From Candidatus Heimdallarchaeota archaeon (GTDB taxonomy: Archaea > Asgardarchaeota > Heimdallarchaeia > Heimdallarchaeales > Heimdallarchaeaceae): a stretch of DNA of 64,000 nt. Made by a program: the position numbers and the translations under genes. Shown piece by piece: positions 6,611-12,638 of this stretch. The stretch spans positions 1 through 64,000 of the forward strand of contig JAHLWR010000009.1 in the NCBI GenBank assembly GCA_019057815.1, in the 5' to 3' direction. Position 1 is the first letter of the stretch; every line of letters begins with the position of its first letter. The notes beneath the pieces were generated by a model, which was not told where the DNA came from, searched no databases, and saw only the letters and a program-made list of their open reading frames with translations.

Positions 6611-7492
6611 TTGGTGTTTAAAATGACTTATGGTTATCAAGTTCATCCTTTTGATTTAGCAAAACGCAGAATTTCAGATAGTTCAAATAAGTTGTATTCT
6701 TATCTTTTGGCAACTGTGATTATCAGTGTAATTCTAGTTATAATTTCTGTGATCATGTTCTTTGTTGTACTCCTACCTTTAGGGTTTACTATAGCAGATT
6801 TCGATCCTAATAATATCTATTCTTCCCTAGAAACCATAATTGATGTTAGTTGGATAGCTATTTTTATAATATCTACAGGTGGAATAATTTTAGTAATATT
6901 ATTTATCATAATTTATGTCCAATATTACAAACTAGGCTCAGGATTTAGGCTTTTACAAAAAGCAGATCCTATGTTTATGAGTCCTCAATATGCTAGCTAT
7001 GGTATAATAGGTTATGTCATTGCAATTATTATTGGATTTTTTGTGCAAGGATATGCTGGAACTGCAATCTCCCTTGCAGGAAATCTCTCTCTTGTTGTAG
7101 GATTTTATTTTATTTACAAAACTTTTACGGATTATAGACAACAAGGAAGATTCAGTAAACCACCAACTAAAATGCTTTTTATCGCTGTTACAATCAATTT
7201 TATTTCTTCAATAGTGGCTTTTTTCACTTTGTTTTCTTCTATTGGGACTATCGTGGGATTTATCTTTCTTCTAATAGGTTATAGAGATTTAAGTAGAGAT
7301 ATAGCACTCATCCTTCCTCCAGGTGCAACACCAACTTCCTCACAAGCAGCTGTTCCTGTTAAAACAGAACAATACCCCATCCAACAAGCAGCTGTTGAAC
7401 CAATTATATCCGGAAAAGCATTTTGTTCGAGTTGTGGAGCGAAAATTGACCACGAGGATAAATTCTGCCCTAACTGTGGTGCCACAACTTAA
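6611..7492 (+). CDS. Multi-pass membrane protein with C-terminal zinc-ribbon
   Basis: About 6 TM segments; terminal FCSSCG...FCPNCG; start probably ATG 6623. Confidence 0.85.
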   Translation: MVFKMTYGYQVHPFDLAKRRISDSSNKLYSYLLATVIISVILVIISVIMFFVVLLPLGFTIADFDPNNIYSSLETIIDVSWIAIFIISTGGIILVILFIIIYVQYYKLGSGFRLLQKADPMFMSPQYASYGIIGYVIAIIIGFFVQGYAGTAISLAGNLSLVVGFYFIYKTFTDYRQQGRFSKPPTKMLFIAVTINFISSIVAFFTLFSSIGTIVGFIFLLIGYRDLSRDIALILPPGATPTSSQAAVPVKTEQYPIQQAAVEPIISGKAFCSSCGAKIDHEDKFCPNCGATT

Positions 7493-7594
7493 AATCTCTT
7501 TTTTCAATCTTTTCCTTTTTACTACTTTTTCGCAATAGAACGATTTAAACTTCTAATTATGTTACTTCAATTATTTTCAAATTGGAAGTATATA

Positions 7595-7767
7595 TGACAT
7601 GAATTTTGTACAAATCCTTTAGAAGTGCTTAGGGCACATCATGGGTACGCCACATACCCTCCTACACCGCCCACACTCCCTTGGGGGAATGCTTACGGTT
7701 TCGCTTTTGGTTTTTTGTTGGATGTAGATCCGAGGATCACCATGAAGTTGGTGCATATCTACAATCC
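7595..7767 (-). ncRNA. Predicted ~170-nt structured RNA of unknown family, copy A
   Basis: GC-rich island in AT-rich DNA; stems conserved with compensatory changes versus copy B; TATA-like TTGATATA (7799-7792) 24 nt upstream of GGAUUGUAG. Confidence 0.7.
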
Positions 7768-7828
7768 TTAAAAGTATAATCTATACTACCCTATATCAAC
7801 ACAACAAAAATGTACACAAAGCTTCTTA
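7595..7828 (-). mobile_element. Non-autonomous ~234-bp element (MITE-like), copy A, carrying a structured RNA
   Basis: Reverse complement ~82% identical to 39043-39274; ends TAAGAAGCTTTGTGTACA...TGTACAAAATTCATGTCA; TA on both flanks; no ORF. Confidence 0.8.
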
Positions 7829-7853
7829 TAAGAGAGTGTGACATTATGGATTT

Positions 7854-8810
7854 ATGATTAGCACAGCTATCCGAACTGTGACTCTAACAAAAATTTACAA
7901 ATCTAACAACTTAAAAGCTGTAGATAATCTTGATTTAGAAATTAAAAGTGGAGAAATCTTTGGATTATTAGGACCGAATGGCGCAGGTAAGACAACTCTA
8001 ATTCGTATGCTTGTAGGTTTGCTTAAATCTACTTCAGGAGAGATTTTCTACGATGGTGATAAGCTCTCATCTACATCCTCACAACTGCACAGAATCATAG
8101 GTTATGTACCTCAAGAATCATCCTTTTGGAATCATCTTACAGTTTATGAAAATCTCTTCTTAATAGGCTCAGCCCACAAAATCCCTTCTAGTATTCTAAA
8201 GGAAAGAATAGATTTTATCTTGAAAGGTCTATTTCTTACAGATAAGAAAAAAGAAAGAACAAATAAATTGTCTGGTGGAATGAAAAGAAGGCTAAACATT
8301 GCTCTCGGGTTAATTCATGATCCTGAAATTCTTTTTTTAGATGAAGTTTTCGTGGGGTTAGATCCTCAGAGTCGAGTGTTTTTGTATGATTTCCTTAAAC
8401 AACTCGCCATTGAAGGAAATAAAACAGTAATCATCACTTCTCATTTAATGGAAGTTGTTGATATTATGAGTGATAGAGTTGGTATTATGGATGATGGAAA
8501 AATGTTAGCTATAGACAGTCCTGAGAATCTGAAAAACACTTTTGGTAAGGGAGATGTTATTGAACTGACAATTGATAAGAAGTTCAACGATAAATTGTTA
8601 GCTGTTATAAAAACTACTTACAAGAATCTTGATCTAAAGCAAGTAGATAATCAGATTTTTATCGGTGCATTGAATGCTATAAAAAAACTTCCTACAATCC
8701 TAAATACAATCGAAAATGAGGGATTTGAAGTTGTTGACACTAGATTACGAAAACAATCTTTAGAGGATGTCTTTATTTCTCTAACAGGAAAACAATTGAG
8801 GGATAATTGA
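7854..8810 (+). CDS. ABC-2 type transporter ATP-binding subunit (DrrA-like)
   Basis: Walker A GPNGAGKTT, LSGGMKRR signature, LFLDE, C-terminal SLEDVF. Confidence 0.95.
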   Translation: MISTAIRTVTLTKIYKSNNLKAVDNLDLEIKSGEIFGLLGPNGAGKTTLIRMLVGLLKSTSGEIFYDGDKLSSTSSQLHRIIGYVPQESSFWNHLTVYENLFLIGSAHKIPSSILKERIDFILKGLFLTDKKKERTNKLSGGMKRRLNIALGLIHDPEILFLDEVFVGLDPQSRVFLYDFLKQLAIEGNKTVIITSHLMEVVDIMSDRVGIMDDGKMLAIDSPENLKNTFGKGDVIELTIDKKFNDKLLAVIKTTYKNLDLKQVDNQIFIGALNAIKKLPTILNTIENEGFEVVDTRLRKQSLEDVFISLTGKQLRDN

Positions 8811-8811
8811 T

Positions 8812-10134
8812 ATGATCGAGTTAGATAATAAATCAACTAATAAATTGCTCAATTTTGGAAAAGGAATCTATTATAACAGTAGACTTGTTTATCAACTCTC
8901 CTTAAAGTTTGTAAGAGAATCTTTTAGAACAAGAGTTTTTATCATTTTTGCACTCCTCTTTCCAGCTGCTTTCATGTTTATCTATTCCTTTGCATTTGGC
9001 TCGTCATTTGCAACTCCAGGAACGATGAATATCTATGTTGTTAATGATGACATAGCTCCAATTGGTCATCCTATGTATGAAAATGTTATAGGAAATTATA
9101 GTAACTTTGTTTTAGAAGGTAATTATTCTAATTTCGGTGAAGCTTTAGTCAAGTTTCTAAGCAATGCTTCGTTCTCTAAAGGTGAAACAGCAGGTGATGC
9201 TATGTTTCACATTACATTAATAGATGAATATAATGAAACAATTGAAGATAGATTAAGTCGTCTTGATCAATATGGGATGATTCTTGTCTTAAGCATCCCT
9301 GATAACTTCAGCACATCTATCCTCAATCTCACTTCTTCTGTTATGATAAATGTTAAAGGTGATCCTTCACTCACGAGTTTTCTTTACGCTACAGGTCTAG
9401 TAAATGGCCTCTTTGACGCTTATTTTTCAATAGTTAGACAATTCATAGGCGATACATCAGGTAAAAGCGAAACAATTGTAGATGCTACAATAGATGTTGA
9501 AGATTGGACATGGTTTGATTTTTCAGTACCTGGACTGATCATTTTTGCGATGCTTATGACTGTTGCTGCAGTTGCCACTCAGATAACAGAGGAAGTTGAA
9601 TTTAGAACTATAGAACGATTACAATTAACTGCTATGCGTCCGGGACATTTTATAGGAGGACTTTTGGGATCTCAACTTTTTATAGGTTTATTCCAAGTCA
9701 CAGCTATGTTTGGCTTTGCTCTACTAGTCGGATTTAAAGGTGAAGGATCATTCATTCAAGCAGGATTGATTTGTTGGCTATCGATTCTGCCCATTACAGC
9801 CATAGGATTCATGGTCGGTGGACTTGTGAAAAAATCACAAATGGCTAGTGCTGTTGCAACCTTAATCGCTGTTCCTTTAAGTTTCCTTACTGGAGCGTTC
9901 TTTCCTCTCGATAATCCTACAATAATAGAGAATTTCTTTGGTCACAAATTCGGTCTTTTTGACTTTCTTCCCATGCGTCACTCTGTAACTATGATGCAAA
10001 GAATATTAATTTACCAAGAACCTTTAAGCAATCTTACTTATGAACTCACAATGTTCTTATGCCTTTCAGCTATCTATTTATTAATAGGATTAGCAATCGT
10101 TACTCTATTCAAACTCAGATCGAAAAAAGAGTAA
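8812..10134 (+). CDS. ABC-2 type transporter permease
   Basis: N-terminal TM, extracellular domain, 5 C-terminal TMs, EEVEFRTIERL and LTGAFFP motifs; follows ATPase by 1 bp. Confidence 0.92.
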   Translation: MIELDNKSTNKLLNFGKGIYYNSRLVYQLSLKFVRESFRTRVFIIFALLFPAAFMFIYSFAFGSSFATPGTMNIYVVNDDIAPIGHPMYENVIGNYSNFVLEGNYSNFGEALVKFLSNASFSKGETAGDAMFHITLIDEYNETIEDRLSRLDQYGMILVLSIPDNFSTSILNLTSSVMINVKGDPSLTSFLYATGLVNGLFDAYFSIVRQFIGDTSGKSETIVDATIDVEDWTWFDFSVPGLIIFAMLMTVAAVATQITEEVEFRTIERLQLTAMRPGHFIGGLLGSQLFIGLFQVTAMFGFALLVGFKGEGSFIQAGLICWLSILPITAIGFMVGGLVKKSQMASAVATLIAVPLSFLTGAFFPLDNPTIIENFFGHKFGLFDFLPMRHSVTMMQRILIYQEPLSNLTYELTMFLCLSAIYLLIGLAIVTLFKLRSKKE

Positions 10135-10327
10135 AATTTTTCTTTATTTTTCTTTTTTTCCTTCAACATAATTCAACTACATAAAACTAAAAAGTTTGAT
10201 TTCGTTAGTTTGAGCCCTGAAATCACAAACTTTTGTATAATGTTTGAGATTAGAAAAAATGTATTTATTTCTTTAGTAGTTATTTTCTTTTCTTTGGATA
10301 AAACTTTTATTGTTCTAATTACTACCT

Positions 10328-11098
10328 TTGAATTATACTATGAGTGTCACTAAATCTATTTATCCTTCACATTCAGATCTAGTAAGCAATAAATTCATTT
10401 TAATGTCTTTTATTGTTTCTTGTGTTTCAGCCATCTTCTCTCTAGCTTCCTCAATATTCTTAGTTTCAGTAAATCCTCTGGATCCTATTTTTTGTATTGT
10501 ATTTGAAGAATCTGGAAAAAGATTTGCCATGTCTTTAGCAATTCCTCATTTCTTGAGTTTGTTTTTCCAGATAATTATTCTTACAATCATCTCTATATTT
10601 TGCATTAAATTTTTCATCATATCCAAAAATATCCCAGAGATAAGACAAAAACTGGTTAAAGTGATATTTTCAATAATTCTTTCAATTCTTCTCATAACAA
10701 TCATTTTAGTAATTATCAGTGTTTTAGTTCTTCATTCACTTACTTTTGTTCCTTCGATTCAGTTGAATGATTCTCTTTTTAATAGAATATGGAGTTTAAT
10801 TGATATTCTCGGTGGTTATGTTTTCTTTGCAATTTTACTTAGCATTTTTATAAATTTGATAATCTTTTGCTTAGTAGATTTTCTGAGAAATCAGTCACCT
10901 ACCCCTGAGATGCGATTAATGATTTTCATAGCTATTTTCATATTTATTCTACTACTTCACACTTTGATTTTCAAAGTAATAGAAATAAACATGATGGATA
11001 AAATTAATAATTTTACTAACTATTTCATTCTATTTCTCAGCTTTGGATTGTTAAGCTTTAGTTTTTTTGATTATAATAAATCCAAGAAAATCAAATAA
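10328..11098 (+). CDS. Hypothetical multi-pass membrane protein
   Basis: 256-aa hydrophobic ORF, about 6 TMs, no recognised motif. Confidence 0.65.
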   Translation: MNYTMSVTKSIYPSHSDLVSNKFILMSFIVSCVSAIFSLASSIFLVSVNPLDPIFCIVFEESGKRFAMSLAIPHFLSLFFQIIILTIISIFCIKFFIISKNIPEIRQKLVKVIFSIILSILLITIILVIISVLVLHSLTFVPSIQLNDSLFNRIWSLIDILGGYVFFAILLSIFINLIIFCLVDFLRNQSPTPEMRLMIFIAIFIFILLLHTLIFKVIEINMMDKINNFTNYFILFLSFGLLSFSFFDYNKSKKIK

Positions 11099-11147
11099 TT
11101 GATCAAAAAGAGAGTTAAATTGGTTAGAAATTTAACCTATACTTTTA

Positions 11148-12638
11148 TCAACTGGGAGGTTGATTTTTTATTTCTTTTTCTTGCTCTCTTTCTGGTCCTC
11201 TAAAGTAGGAGAGGACGGTTGCTAATATCGCTATAAATGCAAAAACAGCAAACATTACACGCATTGCAGGGACATAATTGATGGGATTCATTTTCTCTTT
11301 GCCATTAATATTTGAGAAAATACTTAGGTTAATGGAAAAAACAGCTGTTGCAAGAGCTGTACCTAAGGCAAAACCTACGTTAGTCGCCATACTTAGGAAA
11401 CTGTTTGCTACGCCTAATTTCTTTTTAGAAGCAGAAGACATTACTGAATTAGCATTTGGTGCTATAAAGAATCCTAAACCAACTCCAATAACTAGAGCTA
11501 TTACAACAAGTGTCCATAAAGGAACTGTCATAGTGATAAAAATTGCACCTAAAACTAATGATAAGGTGATTCCTCCCATTCCAATAGTTGCAAGATAACG
11601 CGCATCTATGGTATTAGAGAGAATTCCAGAAATTAACCCACCAACAGCTATTGCTATAGGAGCAGCCAATATAATAATACCTGTTTTGATTTGCCCATAA
11701 TCTAACATTTCTTGTAAGAAAAAAGGTAATTGATAAATAATGACACACAAACACAAATAAGCCAAAATTGCTGAAAAGATCCCAACAATAAATCGTCTGT
11801 TTTTCACAAGTTGCAAATCTATAATTGGATTCGCTGAACGTTTTTCTACAAAAAGTAAAACGAAGAACATACAAATACTGCAAGCTAAACTACTAATACC
11901 AAACAATATAGCGTTAGGCATTTCCGGATTCGCAAAGATACTTAGGCTAAATACAAAGAGAAGTAAGAATAGAGCTAAAGATACTGAACCTGGTAAATCT
12001 GCTTTTCTGATTTTTGATTCATTCTGAGTGAATGAAGGAATCGCTATTTGAACCCAAACTAGTCCAATAATTCCAATTGGGACATTAACAAGAAATATGC
12101 TGTTCCATCCAAATTTTTCTGTTAGCACTCCTCCAAGAATAGGACCCAAGGTTACTCCTAAAGCAATAACAAACGCGTTAAGACCTATAGCTGTTCCTCT
12201 GTTCTTGGGCGTAGTTAAGCGCGTTATGATTGCCATGCCATTCGCAATTAATCCTGCCGCACCTATGCCTTGTAATATTCTAGAAAGAATTAGAAGTGTT
12301 AAAGTGTTCGAGAAGAAACACAGCAATGAACCAATAGTGAAAACTAGCATCCCTATTTGGAAAATAAGCTTATTACTAATTCTATCACCAAGATCCCCAG
12401 CAATTGCTGAAAAAGCAATCATAGCCAGTAAATAGGATAAAATGACCCACTGAATTAGATATTGTTCAACCTTAAGCGAATCTTTCATTGTTTTAAGGCT
12501 GATGTTGACAATTGTACCATCAAGCGAAGCTAGAAAAACACCTATTCCTGTTGCACTAATCAAAACGCTAATCCTGATGTTCTTTTGAGTGGGTGATGAA
12601 GTGCCAATAGATGGAGATTCTTTAGAATCCATTGACAT
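11148..12638 (-). CDS. MFS drug-efflux transporter, DHA2 (EmrB/QacA) family
   Basis: 14-TM pattern, LDGTIVNIS, GDLGDRI, RILQGIG, LGPILGG, WNSIFLVNVPIG motifs. Confidence 0.93.
   Translation of the reverse strand: MSMDSKESPSIGTSSPTQKNIRISVLISATGIGVFLASLDGTIVNISLKTMKDSLKVEQYLIQWVILSYLLAMIAFSAIAGDLGDRISNKLIFQIGMLVFTIGSLLCFFSNTLTLLILSRILQGIGAAGLIANGMAIITRLTTPKNRGTAIGLNAFVIALGVTLGPILGGVLTEKFGWNSIFLVNVPIGIIGLVWVQIAIPSFTQNESKIRKADLPGSVSLALFLLLFVFSLSIFANPEMPNAILFGISSLACSICMFFVLLFVEKRSANPIIDLQLVKNRRFIVGIFSAILAYLCLCVIIYQLPFFLQEMLDYGQIKTGIIILAAPIAIAVGGLISGILSNTIDARYLATIGMGGITLSLVLGAIFITMTVPLWTLVVIALVIGVGLGFFIAPNANSVMSSASKKKLGVANSFLSMATNVGFALGTALATAVFSINLSIFSNINGKEKMNPINYVPAMRVMFAVFAFIAILATVLSYFRGPEREQEKEIKNQPPS

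Follow-up and report, generated by a model that had tools for sequence, protein, structure and literature searches.

What is the short segment that lies between two genes in the 64,000-nucleotide stretch of Candidatus Heimdallarchaeota DNA analyzed here (the window; contig C30:1-64000 of G000, a 3.74-Mb assembly in 48 contigs), and how did it come to be there? The original prediction, made from the sequence of the window, placed at 7595 to 7828 a diverged copy of an RNA-carrying element, on the minus strand between a zinc-ribbon membrane gene and an ABC operon. That placement was borne out, with a shift of 2 nt to 7593 to 7826. The neighbors were a zinc-ribbon protein gene (6611 to 7492) and a gene pair for an ABC ATPase and an ABC-2 permease (7854 to 10134). 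The boundaries of the element were set by alignment of 10 copies from its own genome and 49 copies overall, and the focal copy was recovered with an nhmmer E value of 1e-75 in a profile search of its own assembly. The features referred to below, in window coordinates, were as follows.

7593-7826, minus strand: whole non-autonomous element, focal copy (234 bp, without a conserved ORF)
7827-7831, minus strand: TTATA target motif, presumed TAM, directly 5' of the left end
7792-7799, minus strand: TATA-box-like element, TTGATATA in the focal copy, consensus TTTAWATA, conserved in 49 copies
7593-7769, minus strand: predicted structured RNA of ~175 nt, omega-RNA-like scaffold, beginning ~21 nt past the TATA box
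7720-7767, minus strand: 5' stem domain, GGAUUGUAGA...UCUACAUCC around CACCA/UGGUG, with covarying pairs
7643-7709, minus strand: core homologous to resident tnpB 3' ends (helix 4, 7666-7699; helix 5, 7643-7659)
7593-7640, minus strand: right end, with hairpin GUGCC/GGCAC (7622-7640), AT-rich hairpin GGAUUU/AAAUUC (7601-7617), and tip (7593-7601)
7573-7592, minus strand: 3' flank abutting the right end, TATACTTCCAATTTGAAAAT, candidate guide segment
39045-39276, plus strand: second window copy (copy B), its site empty in the sister species G001

The focal element was without ORFs of ≥50 aa, and none was conserved among the copies, in which the longest ATG-started open stretches ranged from 12 to 65 aa and single-base indels were scattered throughout.

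Copy number and distribution

The presence of two copies in 64 kb had been taken to suggest many in the genome, and this proved correct. At least 10 full-length copies (81 to 89% identity) and 3 right-end fragments were identified in the 3.7-Mb assembly by BLAST and profile search, with dozens more in relatives. The copies in the own genome were far above chance (E 1e-49 to 1e-87), and the focal copy was 82% identical to copy B. Among the other genomes of the same family, 13 of 24, across two genera, carried the element, and 16 genomes belonging to the same order but to different families had none. When 185,579 species genomes were scanned with a right-end pattern of 24 specified bases, 39 loci were obtained, all in Candidatus Heimdallarchaeota MAGs, AB_125 included. 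The same pattern returned 11 loci from metagenome contigs and 0 from viral contigs, and a blastn search of a phage database with the element gave no match. A tRNA/tmRNA scan of the window found none, and no Rfam family was matched by the window at the gathering score or by the element and three tnpB loci at an E value of ≤1.

Apparent right-end-only matches in G010 and G006 were rejected as contig ends, and three further matches of this kind were solo right-end remnants. On contig C1 of the focal genome, two oppositely oriented copies bracketed a tnpB insertion sequence (G000:C1:105423-108558, around C1:106585-107829), and a right-end fragment (C1:114841-114915) was located 6 kb beyond this bracket. 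At L064:1044-1581 (G022:C81) and L122, one copy of the element was interrupted after ...AAAAGCAAACCGT by an insert of ~330 bp. This insert had a TTTATATA box of its own and a GC-rich structured part and probably represents a further small mobile element that lies nested within the first.

Target site, orientation, and empty sites

It had been claimed that the similarity of the two window copies stops at their flanks. A flank-inclusive alignment of the copies gave the same picture, with TTATA preceding the left end and GTCATA closing the right end. The expected TTATA target was likewise recovered: among the 43 distinct copies for which both flanks were available, 37 had it immediately 5' of the left end. 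Past the right tip, the next base was A in 23 copies, T in 10, and G in 10, with no C, and a mirror AA at +1/+2 past the right end occurred in only 4 of the 43. The occurrence of TT before the left-hand ATA in 37/43 copies, compared with AA after the right end in 4/43, indicates an asymmetric target and a fixed orientation of the element, as would be expected for strand-specific IS200/IS605 insertion. No variable target duplication was observed among the copies or in the empty sites described below, with which a constant ATA duplication stays compatible. A 4-nt "ATNN" junction duplication was also considered for the 234-bp element and was rejected, A following the right-hand ATA in only 23/43.

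Occupied and empty alleles were compared in the sister species G001 (MAG 8H_bin2), whose flanking sequences were ~90% identical to those of the focal genome. G001 was precisely empty at the sites of three focal-genome copies, copy B among them, and the focal genome was precisely empty at the sites of two G001 copies, where TTATA was followed by the flank without a footprint. The TTATA motif was retained in the empty sites, for example as AAT-TTATA-AGTTCAC in G001. With five precise empty sites between the two species, the element has moved recently, since these species diverged. The same five sites, found in both directions, rule out the possibility that only the two window copies exist and that orthologous loci always contain the element.

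The focal site itself was uninformative for emptiness, because G001 was without the whole of window positions 7529 to 11159, a segment that contains the element together with the ABC operon and a further ORF. On contig C105 of G001, the zinc-ribbon gene joined directly to sequence orthologous to window position 11160 onwards. This 3.6-kb indel between the two species includes a 256-aa ORF (10328 to 11098), and its left edge is 64 nt from the element. No joined, empty form of the focal site was found among the contigs compared, where the assemblies break inside the repeat.

At another locus, G000:C9:22979-23111, a different insert of ~115 nt was found a few bases from the site of a G001 element (L121:4445-4678). 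It starts with GTTTGATTCTGTCAT, which is similar to the right end of a tnpB insertion sequence in inverted form, and the site looks like an insertion hot spot.

Relationship to resident tnpB insertion sequences

The core of the element (7643 to 7709) was 76 to 79% identical, over 66 to 84 nt, to the 3' ends of ORFs of 417 to 425 aa at seven loci (nhmmer E 1e-9 to 2e-6) and was more weakly similar to four ORFs of 424 to 427 aa. The core-matching ORFs were TnpB, with scores of 139 to 141 bits for NCBIfam guided_TnpB and matches to Pfam OrfB_IS605 and Cas12f1-like_TNB. A PDB sequence search with this TnpB returned weak Cas12f/TnpB-like matches alone, over the RuvC/zinc-ribbon part, at an E value of ~4e-4. 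About 30 intact tnpB genes, belonging to several subfamilies, were present in the genome.

The resident tnpB elements had TTAT as their left flank and ended in ...ATCAT at the right. A GTTTATATAGGG motif was located ~20 to 25 nt before the tnpB ATG in the resident insertion sequences and also at positions 26 to 38 of the element. Helices 4 and 5 of the element were predicted in the tnpB 3' regions as well, with the same details, namely, a nested CCGC...GCGG around a covarying inner stem and a GGGUA...UACCC helix. The shared promoter motif, core, and helices therefore identify the element as a gene-less relative of tnpB insertion sequences in which the omega-RNA region has been retained. Compared as whole units, the resident tnpB-only insertion sequences (7 + 4 copies, e.g., G000:C46:37143-38393) had GTTTATATAGGG, the TTAT flank, the ...TCAT tip, and helices 4 and 5 in common with the element. 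They differed from it in their length of ~1.5 kb, in coding for a TnpB of 417 to 427 aa, and in a tail, ...AAATCAT, and a left tip unlike those of the 234-bp element.

The 5' stem domain was found in gene-less elements only, being common to the focal family and to a sister element in G013, and it was not found in the resident tnpB genes. The G013 element had the same 5' stem and core but a tnpB-like right tip, ...CTCATCAT, which shows a repeated origin of such gene-less derivatives. In the focal element, neither the first ~25 nt nor the last ~50 nt matched any resident insertion sequence, and no parent tnpB with the same right end was found with the 24-base pattern, the 39 genome and 11 metagenome loci all being gene-less or cut by a contig end. 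With no tnpB that has the exact right end of the element, the choice of a cognate TnpB is a guess. Close homologues of the candidate TnpB family were present in 14/14 element-bearing genomes, the focal genome included, a co-occurrence that is weak evidence because the 14 genomes are kin.

Two further features of the tnpB-only insertion sequences were observed. Those on contigs C24, C37, C48, C19, C33, C44, and C1 of the focal genome had ends resembling inverted repeats of ~28 bp. In ~8 of 11 tnpB insertion sequences, the first 4 to 7 nt after the left TTAT resembled the start of the right flank; for example, ATAAATG was present on both sides of two different copies. This likeness of the flanks possibly reflects tandem or nested insertions next to TCAT/TTAT.

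Palindrome-associated transposable elements (PATEs), a name first used in Haloquadratum walsbyi, are protein-less derivatives of IS200/IS605. We consider it likely that the element at this locus is a PATE-like, gene-less derivative of tnpB-only (IS1341-type) IS200/IS605 insertion sequences that carries an omega-RNA. It is classed here by its PATE-like working with an omega-RNA, and derivation from IS200/IS605-type tnpB elements is probable.

Element ends and the mobilizing enzyme

Classical IS200/IS605 ends have clear hairpins. In the left end of the element, no conserved or significant subterminal hairpin was found. The right end had a weak AT-rich hairpin of 5 to 6 bp, 8 nt from the tip, and the single-stranded DNA of the ends folded no better than shuffled sequences; the right tip, CATGTCATA (7593 to 7601), was invariant, with 99% conservation among the copies, and ended in GTCATA. 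Two Y1 TnpA genes were present in the focal genome, both belonging to IS605 copies that target TTAC, end in TTCAA, and have different, GC-rich hairpins. Since these ends and targets differ from those of the element, no compatible TnpA, a feature of strict PATE membership, was found in this genome. In addition, and with the caveat that MAGs are incomplete, Y1 TnpA was not found in 20 MAGs (72 to 92% complete) of g3, the genus with the most copies, of which 13 carry the element; the 417-aa TnpB family was present in 17 of these 20, in up to 27 copies per genome. An IS607-type serine recombinase was considered as the mobilizer and rejected, none of the six resolvase-like genes being located beside the relevant tnpB genes.

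As no Y1 TnpA was found in the 20 g3 genomes and the ends are inverted-repeat-like rather than hairpin-like, the TnpB elements of Heimdallarchaeia and their guide-only parasites might be mobilized by an unrecognized enzyme or mechanism and not by TnpA peel-and-paste. We hold this to be unlikely; if true, it would bear on how, close to the emergence of eukaryotes, TnpB/Fanzor-type elements became linked to transposons of other classes.

Another alternative is that the element is a miniature inverted-repeat transposable element (MITE), mobilized by a DDE-type transposase (Tc1/IS630-like or similar) with duplication of TA or ATA, the TnpB omega-RNA being merely cargo. Several features are in keeping with it: the left-end TTTTGTACA is the inverse of the right-end TGTACAAAA, with ~16 of 20 positions mirrored in the copy-B subfamily, the flanking TAT included, and the inverted-repeat-like ends of ~28 bp in the resident tnpB insertion sequences are of a similar kind. 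The mirroring is, however, limited to the internal TTTGTACA and does not extend to the very termini. Variability peaks in the outermost 5 to 6 nt at the left, while the right tip is invariant, which is a poor fit to a transposase that acts on two like ends. At the junctions, ATA is found on both sides, and the empty sites are compatible with a constant 3-bp duplication, but C always precedes the right-hand ATA, which excludes a 4-bp TATA duplication, and no variable duplication was seen. The imbalance between TT at the left (37/43) and its mirror at the right (4/43), moreover, corresponds to a fixed orientation as in single-strand IS200/IS605 insertion. Although the failure to find a matching Y1 TnpA would also suit a DDE enzyme, the MITE explanation was judged improbable, and descent from IS200/IS605-type tnpB elements is preferred.

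Promoter-like box and gene context

To judge from its sequence and position, the conserved TATA-box-like motif of the element would be a promoter. Archaeal transcription is expected to start ~21 nt past the TATA box. The left-end tip and the 20-nt spacer past the box were the least conserved parts among the copies; conservation increased at element position ~57, with mean pairwise identities of 73% for positions 1 to 56 (the left-end part) and 86% for the remainder (the RNA part). The predicted start of the RNA would coincide with this rise, ~21 nt past the box. The GC content of the RNA part was 45%, compared with 33% for the genome.

Such a layout would also be consistent with a host-serving small RNA family, or with a mobile promoter or regulator, acting independently of TnpB through antisense read-through or through promoter rewiring at TATA boxes. 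In favor of this are the promoter-like box and the conserved fold of the element, and the setting of the focal copy is suggestive: its TTATA motif is 23 nt upstream of the ATG of the ABC ATPase gene at 7854, on the opposite strand and within a TATA-like TTATAA, and the copy faces the zinc-ribbon gene at its 3' end. The sister species differ in their insertion sites, however, and the orientation of the copies relative to neighboring genes was unbiased among 58 copies (p 0.14 and 0.51). The homology of the core to tnpB 3' ends and the invariant right tip that abuts the flank, which is what an omega-RNA requires, also argue against a host function, for which only a slim chance is left. An orientation bias relative to neighboring genes had appeared suggestive in the 10 own-genome copies and was dropped, as it was not significant in the 58.

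Within window positions 7827 to 7856, the focal target, TTATAA, is located where the archaeal TATA box of a leaderless ABC ATPase transcript would be expected. The insertion may have replaced everything upstream of the TATA box of the ABC operon.

RNA fold and its conservation

The RNA was analyzed with 49 distinct aligned copies from the own and related genomes, which gave a consensus fold of seven helices. Standard pairs were found in 97.9% of cells across the 49 copies, compared with 33 to 52% when the partners were slid by 1 to 3 columns. Pairs changed on both sides numbered 14, against 5.8 ± 1.4 in shuffled alignments, and none of 500 shuffles reached 14, a comparison to be read with the caveat that related sequences may beat shuffle controls without real structure. 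In the 5' stem domain, pair 70-101 was divided between AU (24 copies) and CG (23 copies), and pairs 66-106 and 77-89 also covaried; pair 144-154 included UA in 32 copies and CG in 8. The many G-U pairs indicate that the fold exists on the strand of the element only. The original prediction that a fold retained at ~18% divergence reflects selection on RNA structure was therefore upheld by the excess of double-change pairs.

It is very improbable that the copies are decaying relics whose apparent structure stems from shared ancestry alone, since, despite their mutual relatedness (by which shuffle controls can be beaten) and the degraded left end of the copy at C1:105423-105654, double compensatory changes recur across several helices and different subfamilies (pairs 70-101 and 144-154), identity is higher in the RNA part (86%) than in the left-end spacer (73%), and the insertions are recent.

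Candidate guide and proposed mechanism

Each copy had been predicted to bear a different potential guide in its 3' flank. The flanks did differ in every copy, which supports that part of the prediction; such a guide would be directed at the empty site of its own element and not at a virus or a distant locus. The 20-nt 3' flanks of 12 copies, searched against the host genome, gave self matches only, with the remainder at chance level. The focal guide (7573 to 7592) was unique in the genome and had no exact match in viral contigs. If the 3' flank serves as guide, as known TnpB systems suggest, then the sole sensible target would be the vacated site of the element itself, beside TTATA.

A mechanism can be proposed on this basis. 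The element would consist of a left end with a TATA-box promoter, an RNA of ~175 nt, and a right end finishing in GTCATA. The core of the RNA would be the omega-RNA scaffold, usually found overlapping the tnpB 3' end and here preceded by an element-specific 5' stem. Insertion is in one orientation, immediately 3' of TTATA, and leaves no variable target duplication. A transcript from the internal promoter would cross the right end and so yield, for each copy, an omega-RNA with its own 3' flank as guide. This RNA would be loaded by a TnpB encoded elsewhere in the genome, for which the best candidates would be the 417- to 425-aa family with its 7 close copies. After excision, TnpB would cut the empty site, recognized by TTATA and the match to the guide, and the copy would be regained by repair from a sister chromosome. 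In this way, both the nuclease and the transposase of the element would be borrowed.

Under the proposed mechanism, the structured, GC-rich islands that recur in this genome, each with a TATA box of its own, would be explained as copies of one mobile guide-RNA cassette. Together, the copies form a natural data set for the Asgard omega-RNA scaffold and for the candidate TAM (TTATA) of compact Heimdallarchaeial TnpB nucleases, comprising 49 diverged copies, covariation, and both occupied and empty alleles in sister species. They would add a case, of a kind already described, of selection on a guide RNA that is physically separate from the nuclease gene.

Comparison with known systems

The closest parallel is provided by the PATEs. 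Like them, the element is gene-less, is made up of two ends and an omega-RNA region only, and occurs in many dispersed copies, with its proteins supplied from elsewhere; its insertions, too, are adjacent to a short conserved motif and lack a variable duplication. PATEs often encode omega-RNAs, for which TnpB from other insertion sequences must act in trans (Meers et al. 2023, PMC10055086). Unlike PATEs, the element has a Heimdallarchaeota host, its left end has no clear palindrome, and no matching TnpA was identified. It differs from them further in its putative internal archaeal TATA promoter, ~21 nt upstream of the RNA, and in an extra 5' stem that is missing from the parent tnpB region.

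A second parallel is the TnpB/omega-RNA system of ISDra2 (Karvelis et al. 2021, PMC8612924; structure, PMC10097598). The element differs from ISDra2 in that no tnpB is present in cis, its sequence is unrelated, and no Rfam match was obtained. As in ISDra2, the scaffold corresponds to the tnpB 3' end together with the right end, the DNA just past that end would serve as guide, and the TAM would equal the target motif, which makes TTATA the candidate TAM here.
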